Part shown: positions 15,001 to 21,000 of the stretch, in pieces
Layout: every line of letters begins with the position of its first letter
Numbering within the stretch: position 1 is the stretch's first letter
From: Myxococcota bacterium
GTDB taxonomy: Bacteria > Myxococcota_A > Polyangia > Nannocystales > Nannocystaceae
Length of the DNA stretch: 64,000 nucleotides
Direction: 5' to 3'
Assembly: GCA_039028615.1 (NCBI GenBank)
Contig: JBCCHT010000002.1
Span: forward strand, 256,001 to 320,000
Program-made: the position numbers

Positions 15001-18000
15001 CTGAAGCGCGTCCGCAGGTTCGAGAAGAACCCGTCGAAGTCCTCGGCCCGCGACAGCAGCAGGTTGTAGGGCTGCCCGGTGACCCCCAAGACGCCGCGCT
15101 CGACGTCGGTGGTCAACGCCATATAGGTCGCACCGAAGTTCCCGCCCTGCCCGCTGCCGTGATAGTAGGCGCGGCTCGGGTCGACGAAGCGGCCGTAGTC
15201 CGCGTCCTGGCTGAAGCCGCCGGTCATCATGCGCATGGCCAGCAGCGAGTTGATCATGCCCTGGTGCTGACGATCGGTGAGCGACGAGAAGTCGTCGAAG
15301 CGCCCCTCCTCGGCAATCGCCCCCAGGTAGGGCTGGTCGTCGGTCATCATGCCCAGCATGTCGACGGAAAACAGCACGTAGCCGTAGTCGTTGGCGAAGC
15401 TCAAAAGGTGCGCCGCCTCGACCTGGGTGCGGTTGCCCAAAAGCCCATGGCCGTACTGCAACAGCGCCCCCGGGCTCTGATCGCTGACGCTCTGCGGGAT
15501 GATGATCTCGAAGGGGAACCAGCCCCAGGGCGCCTCGGGATTGGGCAGCGGGTCGCCGTCGGAGTCGAACACCAGGTGGCCTCCCGGGCCGCCCTCGGTG
15601 AGGAACAGCGGCACCTCCATCTGCCCGACGAGCCGCACCGCCACGGTGTCGTTCTCCCAGTCCTGGTCGACCACCGTGATGCGGTACTCCGGGCCCTGGC
15701 TGCCGACCAACGCCATCGCCGTGTCCCGCATGTCGAGCATCCACGCCGTGTTGTTCTCGCGGCTGGCCGTGGTGAAGTCCCACGCGATCTGCAGGTCGTG
15801 GCGGAGCACGTCGCCGGTCTCGAGCAGGTTGAAGATGTTGGTGTACAGCGCCCGTCGCCCTCGCACCGAGGCGTCATTGCTGGGCAGGCCGTCGCGCAGC
15901 GCTTCGAAGGCTTCCGAGGGCATCAAGGACTCGCCCTCGTCATCGACCAGGCGCCGAATCGCGACCACGTAGCGACGACCGTCATCGAGCCGAGTGGCGG
16001 GGCGAATCAACAAGGTCCGATGGTCGTCGGAGCCCGCGGTGGCATCGAGCTCGACCCAGTGCGGCACCCGCTCGCCCGACTCGGCATCCACCAGGATCGT
16101 GGGCGAGTCGAACTCCATCGAACGATCGATGTTGGCGAAGGTCGGGACGTCGCTGTCCCGCAGCGAGCTTTGGGTCAGCCCGGGGAAGTGGGTCATGATG
16201 GCCGAGCTGGCCGAGAACCCGTCCGCGCGATTCCAGGGTCCGGGCGAGGGCTTGAGCCCGAAGTAGTCCTCGGGCATCAGGTCCAGACCGAGCTGGAGCC
16301 GACGCCCGGTGGCCGTCGATTCGTCGACCACCGTGTAGACATTGGAGGGAAAGGGAAAGCCGCAGTAGCTGGGCGCCAGGGGGTCGCACTCGAGCAGCAT
16401 CCACTCGGCGACCGACTCCTCGGTGACCTCGAAGACCGGCTCTTGGCAGGCACCGAGCAGGCCGAGGCCGAGCCCGACCGTGAAGCAACGGGACACCAGG
16501 GTCTTGGGGGCGGATGTGCGGCGGGCGATCATGACGACGACGCGATCCTCCAACGGAGGACTGAAGGATATCCCGACGAATCGTCGCCTGCCGCTCAGGC
16601 ATTAAGCGGGCTGACCACAATCACCGCGTAACGGCACCGGACGGTAGTTTCAGGCCCGCTTTTCGCTCCAAAACCAACGTGGCCGCCGACCGAGGGATCG
16701 CCTATGCTGATGTACGATGTTGTGGTTTCGGGACCTTGGAAGGACTCCCATGGCGCGGGGAGTCGCGGGCTTGGCGTTGGCGCTCGGATTCGGCTGCGGG
16801 GGCGATGACGGCGCTCGAGGCAGCGGAGGCGACGGTACGGGCCTCGCATCCCTCGACGGCACTCCGACCGATGGCGACACCCTCGACGGCACGGCCGACG
16901 CCGACCAGAGCGGCGACAAGTTCGACGTCCAGGTCACCGACGCGGGCGTGAGCGGCGATTGCCCGGGCGGCGGCGGAGGCATGGACGACGAGGTCGAGTT
17001 CAGCCTCATCTGGATCGCCAACTCCCCCGAGGGCACCGTCTCCAAGATCGACACCATCACCGGGGTCGAGCTCGCGCGCTACTACACCGGCCCGTCCAAC
17101 GGCGGCGACGATCCCTCGCGCACCTCGGTCAACCTCGCGGGCGATGTCGCGGTCACCAACCGCTCCGGCGGCATCACCAAAATCGCCGCCCGCGATGGCG
17201 ACTGCGTCGACGCCAACGGCAACGGCACCATCGAGACCTCCACCGGCCCCACCGACGTGCTGCCCTTCGGGCAAGACGAGTGCGTGCTGTGGAACCTCGG
17301 CCTGCCCAATGGCGGCAGCAACACCCAGGGCCCCCGCCCCACCGCGTGGGACGCGGGCGCGAGCAACAACCCCTGCGCCGCCGACAGCTTCCGCGTGTGG
17401 GTCGGCTACTACGACATCGCCGTCAACCAGGGTCACTTCTATCGCCTGTCGGGCAGCGACGGCACCATCCTCGACGAGGTCGTCACCCCCAACTGGTCCA
17501 TCGACATGAGCGCCAGCTACGGCCCCTACGGCGGTGCGGTGGACAGCGGCGGTCACCTCTGGACGACCGGCCTGCGCGGGCCCCTGGTGCGCATCGACGG
17601 CACCACCCTCGAGGTTCAGCAGTGGGAGCTGCCGGCCGATACCGCCGCCTACGGCATGACCCTCGACGCCGACGGTCACGCCTGGACCGCGGGTCTCAAC
17701 GGCGAGCTCGCCCACTTCGATCCCGACACCGAGCTGTTCGAGGTCTTCAGCCTCGGCAGCAACTCGCTGCGCGGCCTACAGATCGATCGCGAGGGCACGC
17801 TGTGGGCGGCCGTCAACGGCAACTGCGGCATCGCCCAGTTCGACGTGGCCACCCGCACCATCGTCAATCCGCTCATTCCGCTGCCCGGCTGCATCACCCC
17901 GGTGGGCGTGAGCATCGATGTGGACGGCAACGTCTGGGTCCCGGACCAAGGCGCGAATCTGGCCTTCAAGGTCAACCCGGTCACCTACGACGCGCAGGTC

Positions 18001-21000
18001 ACCCCCGGCCTCGTCGCGCCCTACACCTACTCCGACATGACCGGAGCGGGGCTGGGGCTCGTGTTCAACCCGCCCGCGGGTTGACCGGAACAGAACCGAC
18101 CGGAGCGGCCCGCGGGCTCGCGTCCCGATTGGAACGCGGGCCCGTCGAGCGTCAAACCGCCTCGTTTGCATGCGTAAGAATGAAGCCGAGAGCACGAGCG
18201 TGCGTCCCGGTCCACGATATGAATGCACGAGATGGTTTGAACAATATCGGGCTCGCGCTCGCGGCATGGAGCGTCATTGCGGCGACTCTGGCTTCCTGTA
18301 CCGATCGACCCGCCGTCATCGAGGCGGGCACGGGAACGGGGGACGAGAGCACCAGCGACGGCTCCCCCTCAATCGACACGACCACGACTGCGATGTCGAC
18401 CACGACGTCGAGCACCAGCGAGGGCCTCGACGAGAGCACGACGGGTAGCCCCCCGGATCTGGGGGACGACTCGGCGGGCCAGGAATGCGGCGTCGACTTT
18501 TCCTGCCCCGCCATCGATCTGCTGCTGGTGATCGACAACTCCGGCACGATGGGTGAGGAGCAGCTCAACCTCGCGCGGAGTTTTGCGACGCTCCTGGACG
18601 AGCTCGAATCGTTCGAGGACGCCGAAGGCGGCCTCGTGCGGCCCAACGTCAACGTCATGGTGACGACGACCGACATGGGTCACCCCTCGTGCACGGCCTT
18701 TCAGCACCCTTCGTACACCCCTCGGGAGGGCGCCCCCGTGTACACCGGCTGCAATGCTCGCATCGGCGACTTCGTCGGCCTCGACCCCTCGAACCCAATG
18801 ATCATCGAAGAGGCGTGCACGGAGAACTGCCCCGCCGACGTCGCCCCCACCGGTCATTTTATCAACTTCCATGCCGAGGGGAGCAACGTGCCGAACGATG
18901 ATGTCGGCGTGGCGCTCGCGTGCATCGGCCCCCAGGGCATCAACGGCTGCGGCTACGAAGCACCGCTCGAGGCCATGCTCCAGGCCCTCGACCCCCAAGC
19001 ATGCTGGAACGACCCCGACGTCTCCGGCTGTAGCGACGACCCCGAGTGGGCCGACACCGAAGTCGGCTTCCTGCGCGACGATGCGACGCTGGCCGTGATC
19101 CTGGTGACCGACGAGCTGGACTGCTCGGTCCAGGTCCCCGAGGGTTACTCGTTCTTCACTGACATCGAAAACTCCGTCTTCTGGAACATCAACCCGCAGA
19201 CCGAGGTCCCGCAGACGACGTCGGCCGTCTGCTACAACGCAGGCGTCAGCTGCGTCGACGAGGACGGCGACGGGCTCTACGAGGGCTGCACCTCCGTCGA
19301 TAACGAAGTGCTCCATCCCCCCGAGCGCTACAGCGCCTATTTCCAGGCACTCGTCGACGGCGGAAAAGACGTGGTGATGCTCGGGCTGCTCGGGGTGCCC
19401 ACCGTCGTTCACGACACCGAGCCTCCGTTCGGCCCCCTCGAAGGAGGCGTGGCCAGCCTCCTGTACCGCGCGTGGATCGACTTTCCCTTCCCCGCCGGCG
19501 ACATCCTGCCCAGCGAGTGGGACGCGGGTCGGCGCGCCGCCGACAAGATCTTCGAGTTCGGCGACCTGGGTCCGGGGTGCACCGGAACGGACAAGGTGGG
19601 AAGGTTCACCGGGCAAGCACTGCCCCCGGTCCGCATTCGCGAAGTCTGCGAGAGCCTCGACGTCGTCGAAGCGGACGGGAGCACGAGCCCTCGCTGCTGC
19701 ATCGAGTCGATCTGCGACGACGGCTTCGACCCGGCGATGCGCTGCCTGACCGGCATGCTCGGCCAGGTCGTCGACTGACGTCAGGGCGGCGAGGCCCTCA
19801 GCCGCACATCGTGGCCGCTCGCGGTGCGGTACACGGGCTCCGCAGCGTCGGCGTCGACCCGGTGCATTTGGTTTCGACGCACGCGCGCCCCTCGATACAC
19901 CTCCGGGGGACCAAAGCCCGACTCGGAGTGAACGCGTGCGAGCGCCAGGCTGCCGTCGGGCAGCGACACGAAGACCTGACAACACGCCAGCTCCTGGCAA
20001 CGAGGGTCGAAGGTGACCCATGCCCGCACGCCCTGCGGAATCGACTCGACGTGCCACACCATGCCCAACGTGCGCGGCGTGGTGACCTCGGTCAGTGTCG
20101 AGTACGCGCTGGTTTCGACCAACCATTCGTCGTCATCGTCGTCCACCTGGTCGACGTAGAGCACCGACAACCGACGGTCGAGTCGTACGCGAATGCGATG
20201 AAGGTCGCGCTCGTGCCCGGCCACGTGCAGCAACTCCTCGGCAGGCTGCGGCGCCGCGTGAGAACAAGCGAAGGTGCCGAGCATGGTGAAGAGGATCAGC
20301 GTCGACCCCAGCCGCACCGCCTCGTGTTTCGTCCTCCGCGTCTGCATCGATCCAGGGGATGCCCGCGACCGTGAATTTCCATTCACGTGCCGTGGGGGCC
20401 ATGCACGAGTCAGCTCACGCTCGTGTTCATCGGTCCCACCCACCACCGTGCATAAAGGAGATCTTCGGCTTCGATCACCGGTCGACGGGTGGGTTCCGTC
20501 GGTCGGAGGCCACGCGCCGGATCAACCTCGACCGCTCGCAGTCCCGCTCACGTGTCCGCAACTGGCCCTAGTTTTCCGCCACGGCGCATCAACGCCGGTT
20601 TGCTGCGCGCTTGAACAGGTAGGTACCACTCGTTCCGAAAATGAGGGCTCCCCCTAGGGCGGCCAGCGCGCAAGGCAGGAGTGCAGCACCTACACTGGGG
20701 TTGCGCATATCGGTAGCCCCGCGCTCGGTCTTCCTCGCGTGTTCGAGCCATGACATGTTCCCGTCCGCAGACCAAGGACAGCACGCACCGTCATGGCCGT
20801 TCACACTGCGCCAAGGGGTCTCGACCTCCCGATCAAGGGCGCGCCCAATCAACAAATCGTAGAGACAATCAACGTTCGACGTGTCGCCGTGATGGCTGCC
20901 GACTATCCCGGCATGCGACCGAAGATGCTCTGCAAGGTCGGTGACCGCGTCAAGCGGGGCCAACCACTCTTCGAAGATCGTAAAGCCGCCGGGGTCCTGT

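Follow-up and report, generated by a model that had tools for sequence, protein, structure and literature searches.

The C-terminus of myxobacterial surface proteins is the site of the MYXO-CTERM/myxosortase signal (TIGR03901). As described in the consulted excerpts of PMC11980579, this signal is tripartite, with a GCGC-like motif, a transmembrane helix and an Arg cluster, and is cut by an intramembrane protease. The tail considered here, Pro-x-Gly (P.G) or Pro-Pro-x-Gly (PP.G) at the extreme end, resembles it in having a cysteine near the motif in most families, and choice-of-anchor L proteins carry either. In contrast to MYXO-CTERM, the PPxG protein simply ends, with no helix past the stop, and its anchor would be the N-terminal lipid; the 65 MYXO-CTERM matches of the genome lie on other proteins. 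In ChrA-type lipoprotein precursors a C-terminal CPxCGxG is modified by MNIO enzymes and read regardless of the remaining sequence, also in proteins >30 kDa (PMC13056109, in part). This too is a minimal extreme-C-terminal motif with Cys and Pro, ended by Gly, on lipobox proteins, but according to the same excerpts it needs two cysteines and a nearby MNIO gene, whereas PPxG tails have at most one cysteine and no MNIO neighbour. A single true CPACGRG protein is encoded in the genome, with an MNIO gene about 1.8 kb away, and represents a separate system. The genome's MNIO enzymes adjoin their own substrates, not tail genes.

The beta-signal of outer-membrane barrels likewise lies in the few C-terminal residues and their free carboxy group, and again no helix follows. 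It differs in its aromatic end, in its carriers (barrels instead of soluble lipoprotein domains) and in its known reader, BAM. A pair scan of the non-lipobox proteins returned R(-2)-F(-1) 74 times against 24.9 expected, which we take to be the beta-signal of putative barrels. PDZ-read C-termini, such as those bound by DegS and Tsp/Prc, are recognised in the periplasm through their last three to four residues and the carboxylate. Canonical PDZ ligands typically have a hydrophobic last residue, unlike the Gly of the putative tag here. LPXTG-type sortase signals are Pro-containing pentapeptides with a Gly end, and the variant NPPTG is similar, but they depend on a sortase and have a helix and a basic tail behind them, and the genome has no PF04203 match. 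Finally, the peptidylglycine alpha-amidation signal of animals has an obligatory C-terminal Gly. We know of no such pathway in bacteria; the genome does have PHM/DBH-family copper enzymes, although their substrate-clamp residues are not conserved.

A propeller lipoprotein with a PPAG end

The window (the whole 64,000-nucleotide stretch analysed, from a Nannocystaceae genome) carries on the plus strand, at 16750..18084 with the TGA stop included, an ORF of 444 aa delimited with a codon-usage gene caller. The product begins MARGVAGLALALGFGC, finishes ...GLGLVFNPPAG directly before the TGA and is identical to P0121. Judged from sequence and structure model, it is a lipid-anchored protein with a Cys16 lipobox, a disordered tether of ~70 residues, a seven-bladed YVTN/Vgb-like propeller and a 24-residue PPAG-ended tail, and it probably sits on the cell surface. 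The predicted signal peptide with its lipobox, MARGVAGLALALGFG-C, (16750..16797) was read directly from the sequence and passes a crude lipobox regular expression; Cys16, the predicted lipidated residue, is near-invariant in the alignment of this propeller family (family B, alignment A1). The Gly/Asp/Thr-rich tether behind the lipid anchor (residues 17-85, 16798..17004) is predicted to be disordered, with AlphaFold2 pLDDT mostly <50 over residues 1-82. The beta-propeller domain (residues 86-420, 17005..18009) was modelled as a block of repeated four-strand blades with pLDDT 84-98, and its top Foldseek matches were 1l0q (archaeal S-layer protein YVTN propeller, E 1e-13) and 2z2o (virginiamycin B lyase). 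The Pfam matches were SGL (3.9e-7) and Vgb_lyase (4.1e-7), the second of which falls short of its cut-off.

The conserved C-terminal tail, L-V-A-P-Y-T-Y-S-D-M-T-G-A-G-L-G-L-V-F-N-P-P-A-G, spans residues 421-444 (18010..18081), and 13 invariant A1 columns fall in it (L421 ... P441 P442). No other stretch of the protein is as conserved, yet this tail was modelled as unstructured, with pLDDT <50 over residues 430-444. The terminal Pro-Pro-Ala-Gly and the TGA stop (18070..18084) were compared in the 120 closest database homologues, and the P.G end was found in 111, the very figure of the initial annotation. P occupies position -4 in 111 of them and -3 in 119, G occupies -1 in 111, and the residue at -2 is A/Q/T/P/V/E/I. 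The distance from DMTG to the end is exactly 12 residues in 111/120. Within this genome 17 of 20 propeller paralogues end in P.G, against 20 of 22 reported earlier. In a more diverse set of 127 short-tailed family B representatives (among 150 listed, from clusters formed at 50% identity), 62 end in P.G, 33 have P at -2, seven have P at -1, eight have P at -3 but no G, and only 11 lack Pro among their six terminal residues.

The tail across the genome and its relatives

Genes were re-called over the whole 12.27 Mb genome with our own codon-usage caller, which gave 9242 genes, 8759 of them of at least 120 aa. This caller is crude and often miscalls gene starts; the equally crude lipobox class of 1638 proteins comprises 803 found via the called start and 835 via an alternative start. 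The P.G motif stands at the extreme end of 159 of the 8759 proteins, compared to 38-72 at offsets 1-15 (165 versus 38-73 in the initial annotation), and PP.G at the end of 43, compared to 0-9 at other offsets. In the lipobox class the P.G end was counted 61 times versus 2-20 elsewhere and PP.G 23 times versus 0-3. The odds ratio of lipobox proteins versus the rest for the P.G end was 2.77 (Fisher p 6e-9), essentially reproducing the earlier 2.8 and 6e-10, and the 159 proteins fell into 105 clusters (103 before). All previously cited examples were recovered, namely CDEFIPPAG, CFLPPAG, CQPPVG, the IgGFc_binding protein and the genome's only GH16 and only GH64. The tail is fixed at the carboxy terminus, and even stop readthrough or a frameshift reveals no membrane helix trailing it (0/61 and 1/43 versus 64/1500 controls).

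The excess had a different meaning in the two protein classes. Across the proteome, protein ends are enriched in P at -3 and, separately, in G at -1, and outside the lipobox proteins the P.G excess turned out to be an end-composition effect (98 observed versus 91.7 expected from the marginal product, p 0.27). Among lipobox proteins P.G was observed 61 times versus 32.2 expected (p 4e-6) and PP.G 23 times versus 3.1. When each C-terminal-domain family was given one weight, this coupling fell to 18.6 versus 16.2 for P.G and 5.2 versus 1.6 for PP.G, which implies that the signal is carried by few expanded families and not by dozens of independent proteins. The initial annotation had spoken of dozens of unrelated lipoproteins; the folds are indeed unrelated, but the number shrinks to about ten end-conserving families plus 21 lipobox singletons. 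At the level of families the recurrence is clear. Among 95 families with any conserved end, P.G occurs in 10 versus 1.2 expected (p 5e-7), and among the 49 with a conserved three-residue end pattern PP.G occurs in six versus 0.05 expected (p 2e-11), with no other end pattern recurring in these 49. The terminal Pro and Gly codons follow ordinary genome usage, so no DNA element is being copied, and the paralogues within family A (a second tail-bearing family) and within family B are highly divergent. The tail is a real protein-level motif, fixed at the terminus, under purifying selection and convergent across folds.

The carriers in the lipobox class include VWA/integrin-beta-like, YVTN propeller, choice-of-anchor L, FG-GAP, fibro-slime, IgGFc-binding and other families. 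The ten conserving families have 61 P.G members. The lipobox expression matches 40 of these, and inspection by eye added ~17 lipoboxes and one signal-peptidase-I type signal, with three unassigned; the P.G tail of these families is almost confined to predicted lipoproteins. Ends of this kind recur convergently in ~10 unrelated adhesin-like or hydrolase-like lipoprotein families of this genome and its relatives. In the usual layout a last cysteine, presumably in a disulphide, is separated by 1-8 residues from a terminal Pro-(Pro)-x-(Gly).

The invariant element of this layout is a proline 2-4 residues from the end, usually right after the last cysteine, whereas the presence of a final Gly depends on family and clade, with PPM, PPK, PPE and PQ as Gly-less ends. 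Family A keeps C-x-x-F-x-P-P and 7-8 residues past the last Cys in 118/120 sequences, with G at -1 in 98/120; its orthologues end in PPPM or PPM in Nannocystis and in PPE or PPK in Enhygromyxa, Plesiocystis and ST9. In GH16, one of the lipobox singletons, the Gly is not conserved. All 24 closest GH16 homologues have Pro within the last three residues, but only seven end in P.G, and 35 of 57 remoter short homologues end in P-x-L/I/V (the few source-named ones being gammaproteobacteria). Family-weighted Pro frequencies at -1 to -4 of lipobox proteins were 0.158, 0.109, 0.116 and 0.098, compared to ~0.06-0.08 further in, and 0.091, 0.084, 0.098 and 0.082 in non-lipobox proteins. Terminal Gly was favoured in both classes (0.127 and 0.128 versus 0.091 overall), which makes part of P.G the product of two separate trends.

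Protection, recognition or composition

The initial annotation had called the tail a recognition tag. Our data do not show this: Pro is the invariant part, the last residue differs by family and clade, and no reader enzyme or co-distributed gene was found. Apart from slightly more ECF sigma factors than expected (17 versus about 10), no neighbour of tail genes recurred, nor was a tail module common to different families found. It is more likely that the tail protects the protein end than that it is a new sorting signal, and our best, if tentative, reading is a short terminal "proline cap" that would make exposed proteins resistant to carboxypeptidases. Enzymes of the carboxypeptidase A/B types are not known to cleave terminal Pro or the residue behind a penultimate Pro, and release Gly slowly. 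The chain would stop 0-2 residues past a rigid Pro-Pro element, leaving no floppy tail, and the proline-adjacent bond would block trimming into the fold. We favour the cap because Pro is invariant and Gly is not, the Pro trend is general and family-independent, Gly is favoured proteome-wide, and nothing points to a dedicated machine. In addition, the family A tail was modelled as ordered (pLDDT about 82-94), directly behind the last helix and a conserved Cys, and the genome has 12 Peptidase_M14 matches spread over 11 ORFs. A MYXO-CTERM match is present as well in two of the 11, implying cell-surface display of these carboxypeptidases. If correct, the cap would matter for periplasmic or surface-exposed proteins of a predator whose own carboxypeptidases are displayed there.

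The cap does not explain the strong preference for Gly as the last residue in some families, and it has one main alternative, which we consider possible but less likely. According to that alternative, the tail is a short linear tag, a C-terminal signal without a helix behind, whose free carboxy terminus is read by another protein that sorts or holds N-terminally lipidated adhesins at the surface. The candidate readers would be a PDZ-type or groove-type module of an envelope machine, such as one of the three GspC-like type II secretion proteins with PDZ-like domains in this genome, or an outer-membrane platform. Many cap designs are possible, yet six folds converged on exactly PP.G with a fixed stop. 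Among diverse family B representatives with two residues after the Pro, 62/70 have Gly as the final one, which protection does not predict. The -2 residue in 220 family A and B tails is only A/Q/T/E/P/V/I, never G, S, D, N, K, R or L, and six family A loci with a three-residue extension still end in P-[VA]-G. The family B tail, conserved but unstructured in the model, is what would be expected of a partner-bound peptide. A tag would also agree with the near-exclusive occurrence on lipoproteins and with surface-type carrier domains, among them choice-of-anchor L, which elsewhere in the phylum has MYXO-CTERM or PEP-CTERM anchors. In two other genomes the same fibro-slime lipoprotein family has another fixed end, C-F-x-x-[PD]-F-[VI]-F, in the corresponding place. 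Excerpts from the literature bear on this reading: the EpsC PDZ domain is required to secrete one subset of type II substrates, although known type II signals are conformational (PMC12369372, in part); myxobacterial type II secretion was proposed to bring lipid-anchored proteins to the surface (PMC11980579, in part); and the CglB termini dock onto outer-membrane barrels in a structural model (PMC11761067, in part). Besides the missing reader and conserved neighbour, a tag is opposed by the fact that entire genera and sister families have M, K, E, Q or no residue in place of Gly. Genomes with a Gly-less family B keep Gly in family D, which is not the clade-wide switch that co-evolution with one reader would produce, and the family-weighted coupling of P(-3) and G(-1) is not significant.

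That the motif is not under selection, and merely reflects Pro- and Gly-rich ends in a 68% G+C genome combined with recent paralogue expansion, is improbable and disfavoured. The marginal-product result outside the lipobox class, the non-significant family-weighted coupling and the membership of 40/61 lipobox P.G proteins in ten families would all fit, but the motif is kept over deep divergence while -2 varies (111/120 at 50-80% identity, 62/127 cluster representatives), and the recurrence among conserved-end families, the normal codon usage and the divergence of the family A and B paralogues argue against it.

Least probable of all is consumption of the terminal Gly, either as an amide donor (peptidylglycine amidation by one of eight PHM/DBH-like copper monooxygenase lipoproteins) or as the leaving group of a transpeptidase linking the new C-terminus to an envelope acceptor. 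The 62/70 Gly ends, with P-x as a common alternative as if P-x-G were its precursor, fit this idea, as do the eight Cu2_monooxygen matches (seven above cut-off, none in 14 control genomes), all on predicted lipoproteins with the copper ligands kept and several with a cytochrome-c-like N-terminal part. In PHM, the peptidylglycine carboxylate is held by R240, N316 and Y318. The genome lacks a sortase, its MNIO enzymes are not beside tail genes, copper genes also occur in genomes with a Gly-less family B (seven matches in G006, four each in G008 and G010), Arg is found at the R240-aligned position in 0/8 enzymes, the N316/Y318 pattern is not kept, and the best paralogue is nearer to dopamine beta-hydroxylase (8e-36) than to PHM (2e-23).

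The propeller lipoprotein and its conserved end

The gene at 16750-18084 (+) of the window is an open reading frame of 444 codons with a TGA stop, which was chosen as a gene by the codon-usage caller. The N-terminus of its product, MARGVAGLALALGFG-C16, has a lipoprotein-type signal (LGFG-C16) whose C16 is nearly invariant among homologues; with this signal peptide and lipobox cysteine the protein is a predicted bacterial lipoprotein, i.e. a putative substrate of Lgt and Lsp. In the AlphaFold2 model the Gly/Asp/Thr-rich stretch after C16 was disordered up to about residue 82 (pLDDT <50), and residues 86-420 formed a confident propeller (block pLDDT 84-98), the top Foldseek matches being the YVTN propeller of an archaeal S-layer protein (1l0q, E 1e-13) and virginiamycin B lyase (2z2o, 2e-12). 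The modelled fold corresponds to a six- or seven-bladed beta-propeller of the Vgb/YVTN type. Since the Pfam matches to SGL and Vgb_lyase were both weak, the latter lying under its Pfam cut-off, no enzymatic (lyase) activity should be assumed. The final 24 residues, LVAPYTYSDMTGAGLGLVFNPPAG, contained 13 invariant alignment columns, yet their pLDDT was below 50.

The studied genome (G000; contigs are denoted C plus a number) comprises 12.27 Mb at 68% G+C and is 96.7% complete, and, by protein identity, Paraliomyxa miuraensis is the nearest of its named relatives. All related loci came from Nannocystaceae, Nannocystales or Polyangia records, the taxon labels of homologues and loci being those carried by the sequence records. 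Directly downstream of the propeller gene, at 18237-19778 (+), lies the gene for a 513-aa lipobox protein from a small Cys-rich family of 7-10 members; it ends in ...CLTGMLGQVVD, and only one paralogue ends in Pro-any-Gly (P-x-G).

Among the 120 closest homologues of the window protein (50-100% identity; as in our other homologue sets, phylogenetically non-independent), Pro was found at position -4 in 111 and at -3 in 119, Gly at -1, the last residue, in 111, and the stop exactly 12 residues past DMTG in 111. Position -2 was occupied by A (49), Q (26), T (22), P (13), V (7), E (2) or I (1). In the VWA/MIDAS, integrin-beta-like family, 98 of 120 homologues ended in P-x-G, and in 118 of 120 the last Cys was followed by 7 or 8 residues. 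Across the 220 P-x-G tails of these two sets, position -2 was limited to A, Q, E, T, P, V and I. A Cys 3-8 residues from the end is present in the VWA/MIDAS, FG-GAP, fibro-slime/PA14 and other families and is lacking in most propeller tails. A DNA-level element or codon artefact was rejected, as the codons for terminal Gly and Pro showed normal genome usage and the stop codons were mixed; the commonest pair of last codon and stop in the genome is GGC-TGA (596).

Terminal P-x-G in the proteome and its carrier families

Genes were called from all stop-to-stop ORFs with a codon log-odds model trained on long high-GC3 ORFs, starts being set by the best suffix score and overlaps resolved greedily. 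The 9242 genes so obtained covered 87% of the genome, and 8759 of them encoded at least 120 aa. The crude start calls affect lipobox calling only, because the stop codon alone fixes the C-terminus. The lipobox class comprised 803 proteins recognised via the called start and 835 via a nearby alternative start; the gene calls, the lipobox regular expression and the single-linkage clustering are all home-made and crude.

P-x-G stood at the very end of 159 of the 8759 proteins, compared with 38-72 at offsets 1-15, and PP-x-G at the end of 43 (0-9 at other offsets). Both residues were enriched at protein ends proteome-wide, Pro at -3 in 935/8759 and Gly at -1 in 1155/8759 (653-882 at other offsets), the family-weighted rate of terminal Gly being the same with a lipobox (0.127) as without one (0.128). 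In non-lipobox proteins, P-x-G ends occurred as the product of the positional frequencies (98 observed versus 91.7 expected, P = 0.27). In the lipobox class, 61 proteins ended in P-x-G (2-20 at other offsets) versus a product expectation of 32.2 (P = 4e-6), and 23 in PP-x-G (0-3 at other offsets) versus 3.1 (P = 5e-13); the odds ratio for a P-x-G end, lipobox against the rest, was 2.77 (P = 6e-9). The P-x-G, PP-x-G and odds-ratio figures of the initial annotation were thus reproduced almost exactly with independent gene calls, its count of P-x-G ends among homologues of the window protein, 111 of 120, was recovered unchanged, and each example that it had named checked out, including the only GH16 and the only GH64 protein of the genome.

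The same annotation had described the tail as shared by dozens of unrelated lipoproteins. When all proteins were clustered on the 150 residues preceding the last eight (6116 clusters) and each cluster was given one vote, the coupling to the lipobox dropped to 18.6 versus 16.2 expected for P-x-G and 5.2 versus 1.6 for PP-x-G. However, ten multi-member clusters conserved a terminal P-x-G (pattern shared by two or more members that make up at least 40% of the cluster) versus 0-2 at any other offset, and six conserved PP-x-G versus none elsewhere. Among clusters conserving an end of the form a.b, P-x-G accounted for 10 of 95 (1.2 expected, P = 5e-7), followed by A.A (4 clusters) and L.F (3 clusters); among those conserving an ab.c end, PP-x-G accounted for 6 of 49 (0.05 expected, P = 2e-11), with no second recurring pattern. 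The phenomenon is therefore real and concerns about ten families rather than dozens of independent proteins.

P-x-G ended 18 of the 30 members of the VWA/MIDAS family (...C-x-x-[FY]-x-P-(P)-x-G), 17/20 of the propeller family that includes the window gene, 7/15 of the choice-of-anchor L family, 4/6 of an FG-GAP family (...G-G-x-C-x-P-P-x-G), 3/5 each of the fibro-slime/PA14 and IgGFc_binding families and 2/5 of a DUF6923 family, in addition to three small families without a Pfam match; a second FG-GAP family (2/6) fell under the 40% cut-off. By regular expression and eye alone, 40 of the 61 P-x-G-ended members of the tail families passed the lipobox expression, about 17 more were judged lipoproteins by eye, one was of the signal-peptidase-I type and three were not assigned. 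Outside these families there were 21 more P-x-G-ended lipobox proteins, including GH16, GH64 and a PDZ-S41 peptidase. When built from the final 24 residues of the propeller family, an HMM matched that family alone (19 hits, E <0.001), the next match (0.0048) being an Arg-ended protein, and a shared homologous tail module was rejected. Thus, the tails share nothing detectable past the last four residues and reflect convergence, not a shuffled module.

Other recurrent ends were also observed. The window genes at 12686-13573 (-) and 13637-14548 (-) belong to a family of 51-61 paralogues, mostly with a lipobox and without a Pfam match, that typically end in ...P-P-G-[YF]-E-x-V-G-V-C-A-L-P-x, with Cys at -5 and Pro at -2. 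No other pair of residues at the ends of lipobox proteins is as strong as this one, C(-5) with P(-2) (27 versus 7.9 expected).

Variation of the tail across loci and lineages

In the propeller family, 11 of 21 genomic loci ended in P-x-G and the others in NPPA, VPQ, NPQ or APQ; four distant relatives carried an extra domain of about 115 residues, itself ending in C-x(2-5)-P-x-G or similar. A short tail was found in 127 of 150 diverse representatives, with P-x-G in 62 (24 of them PP-x-G), Pro at -2 in 33, at -1 in 7, at -3 without Gly in 8 and at -4 to -6 in 6, and no Pro in 11. In named genomes, 53 of the 79 complete VWA/MIDAS loci ended in P-x-G; Nannocystis species had PPPM or PPM, and Enhygromyxa, Plesiocystis and ST9 had PPE or PPK. 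Six VWA/MIDAS loci carried a three-residue extension, again ending in P-[VA]-G, and Nannocystis bainbridge had paralogues of both kinds, PPM and PPG. Five genomes provided 20 loci of the FG-GAP family, of which 14 ended in P-x-G, as still did 8 of the 12 loci in the three genomes (G006, G008 and G010) whose propeller proteins end in PQ or PPA. There is thus no clade-wide switch, because the FG-GAP family keeps P-x-G even where the propeller family lacks Gly; taken with the two kinds of end in N. bainbridge, this does not support a clade-wide covariation of the last residue of the sort that one co-evolving reader would produce.

Where the studied genome has CF[FL]PPAG, four short lipoprotein homologues of the fibro-slime/PA14 family (L145 and L157 in genome G075, L147 and L158 in genome G051) ended in ...ET[ST]I[SR]CF-x-x-[PD]-F-[VI]-F, a different fixed word; both genomes, of 2.7-2.9 Mb, lie outside the order and in the same class. 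Elsewhere in the phylum, choice-of-anchor L proteins had either a short P/G-rich tail, e.g. ...PSTVRPGG(G), or about 250 extra residues with a MYXO-CTERM or PEP-CTERM anchor. The 24 closest GH16 homologues all had Pro within the last three residues, 7 of them ending in P-x-G. Among 57 more distant short homologues, 48 with a lipobox-like N-terminus, 35 ended in P-x-[L/I/V], typically H-Q-A-P-x-L, and the few with a source name were from marine gammaproteobacteria (Shewanella, Colwellia and Thalassotalea). The lipobox-bearing glucanases among the GH16 homologues (P0413-P0508) conserve the end H-[QK]-A-P-x-[LI], in which -2 is free, as in the P-x-G layout but with Leu last. What all these ends have in common is a fixed stop with a Pro two to four residues before it; a strong preference for Gly is confined to particular families and clades.

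Known C-terminal signals and possible readings of the tail

The PPxG tail is not a MYXO-CTERM, GlyGly-CTERM, PEP-CTERM or LPXTG signal, since it lacks a helix with a basic tail and the genome lacks a sortase. A hydrophobic stretch with an Arg cluster past the stop, in any frame, was found for 0/61 lipobox P-x-G and 1/43 PP-x-G proteins versus 64/1500 controls; this bears out the initial statement that no membrane helix follows the tail, and a hidden MYXO-CTERM-like helix reached by read-through or frameshift was rejected. In MYXO-CTERM (TIGR03901) an invariant signature Cys is followed by a helix and a terminal Arg-rich cytoplasmic cluster, whereas the PPxG proteins have neither helix nor cluster and end in P-x-G; as for the Cys, several tail families have one near the end and most propeller tails do not. 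The 65 MYXO-CTERM matches of the genome were all in other ORFs, one of them (24.6 bits, cut-off 20) in the 365-aa protein at 54505-55602 (+) of the window, which ends in ...CSCRQSSGGDDALGWLGLLGLLGLMRRRSLR. In LPXTG signals a helix and basic tail follow the motif, with nothing alike after PPxG, and the genome, 96.7% complete, yielded no match to the sortase model PF04203, to which controls did match. Unlike the beta-signal of outer-membrane barrels, a C-terminal aromatic residue on a barrel, the tail ends in Gly on propeller and VWA folds. To our knowledge, every catalogued sortase-type C-terminal sorting signal carries a membrane helix. No report of a terminal PPxG or PxG motif was found by title or abstract in the literature covered, which excludes subscription journals.

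Among published concepts, the closest is that of ChrA-type precursors of lipidated macrocyclic peptides, which bear a lipobox and a minimal CPxCGxG motif at the C-terminus that MNIO enzymes modify (PMC13056109). That motif has two Cys and a nearby MNIO gene (PF05114), whereas PPxG tails have no second Cys and no neighbouring enzyme. Within four neighbours on each side of the eight MNIO genes there was no P-x-G-ended lipoprotein of the tail families, the sole P-x-G end being that of g05491 (...ALPPG, contig C25), which has no lipobox. The MNIO enzymes were not linked to the tails; each of the eight genes adjoins its own small substrate or partner.

The reading that we tentatively place first is a terminal proline cap, in which the Pro-rich end would guard exposed lipoproteins against carboxypeptidases; we infer the surface exposure, the disulphides and the protease resistance. 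In lipobox proteins Pro is enriched from -1 to -4 irrespective of family (0.158, 0.109, 0.116 and 0.098 versus about 0.07 further in), the final residue is variable, and the VWA/MIDAS tail is predicted to be ordered. By textbook rules, a Pro in the last or penultimate position blocks M14-type carboxypeptidases. Such enzymes are encoded by 11 ORFs of the genome, and two of these, G000:C45:30377-31585 (-) and G000:C9:248511-249683 (+), of 576 and 871 aa, are probably surface-anchored because they have a C-terminal MYXO-CTERM match. The search for dedicated machinery, which also favours the cap, found no sortase, MNIO link or recurrent neighbour: around 93 tail-family genes there was no recurrent partner, and ECF sigma factors were mildly overrepresented (17 versus about 10 expected).

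That the tail is instead a tag read by another protein is possible but doubtful. In favour of such a reader are the convergence specifically on PP-x-G, the restricted choice at -2, the extended variants that recreate P-x-G, the preference for Gly where two residues follow Pro (last in 62 of 70 propeller representatives), the conservation of a propeller tail that is modelled as unstructured, and the restriction of the motif to lipoproteins. Two papers offer analogies: the PDZ domain of GspC/EpsC selects substrates (PMC12369372), and adhesin termini dock on outer-membrane barrels (PMC11761067). Three GspC-like proteins that combine a T2SSC homology region with a PDZ-like domain at the C-terminus, at G000:C67:8979-10055 (-), C22:28725-29636 (+) and C4:196303-197292 (+), suggest several type II secretion systems. 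A complex prediction of the C67 PDZ region (residues 250-358) with the last 40 residues of the propeller family, run without controls, scored 0.00 and speaks neither for nor against binding. Immediately upstream of the C22 gene are an MNIO gene and that gene's downstream neighbour.

In its strongest and rather unlikely form, the idea of a tag makes PPxG-COOH a new C-terminal address of Nannocystales surface lipoproteins, with four residues, a free carboxylate and no helix, by which an envelope reader would move or hold lipidated adhesins and glycoside hydrolases on the surface, other lineages using other words (P-F-[VI]-F, P-x-L). The candidate reader would be the PDZ-like module of one type II secretion system, or an outer-membrane platform.

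How diderm bacteria choose surface-exposed lipoproteins is still poorly understood. The tail is a conserved, convergent and helix-free four-residue end, found on lipoproteins of integrin-like, propeller, PA14 and glycoside-hydrolase type. If a machine reads it, the tail would make this choice directly testable in a predatory lineage that has been studied little. As a proline cap, it would be a simple and unsurprising design rule that keeps exposed proteins intact in a protease-rich envelope, of help in annotation and expression. On either reading, C-terminal enrichment should be corrected for positional composition and paralogy before a signal is named.

Composition and paralogy as the whole explanation, weighed on the shrinkage under one vote per cluster and on the ten clusters that conserve P-x-G, we consider improbable. 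A chemistry that consumes the Gly, such as amidation by PHM-like enzymes, is most improbable: the stronger matches (E <1e-13) to the PHM/DBH-type two-copper monooxygenase family occur mainly in genomes with a Gly-ended propeller family, but the comparison covers 11 related genomes, a strong match is absent from one of the Gly-ending ones, and residues of the carboxylate clamp, which we take to be R240, N316 and Y318 in PHM numbering, are missing, with Arg at the R240 column in 0/8 paralogues. These eight predicted lipoproteins (G000:C2:10973-12040, C27:188295-189743, C64:19875-21245, C84:9579-10982, C3:359651-360937, C40:40448-41821, C50:13533-14951 and C1:508737-510221) all keep the copper ligands of the core, the N-terminal part of several being cytochrome-c-like (CxxCH); the family was absent from 14/14 control genomes.

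The only C..CG.G end in the genome, found on no PPxG protein, was that of g05297 (G000:C24:7977-8396 (+)), a 139-aa lipobox protein ending in ...DCPACGRG and thus in the CPxCGxG motif. About 1.8 kb from it lies G000:C24:10193-11065 (+), one of the eight MNIO (MbnB_TglH_ChrH family) genes.
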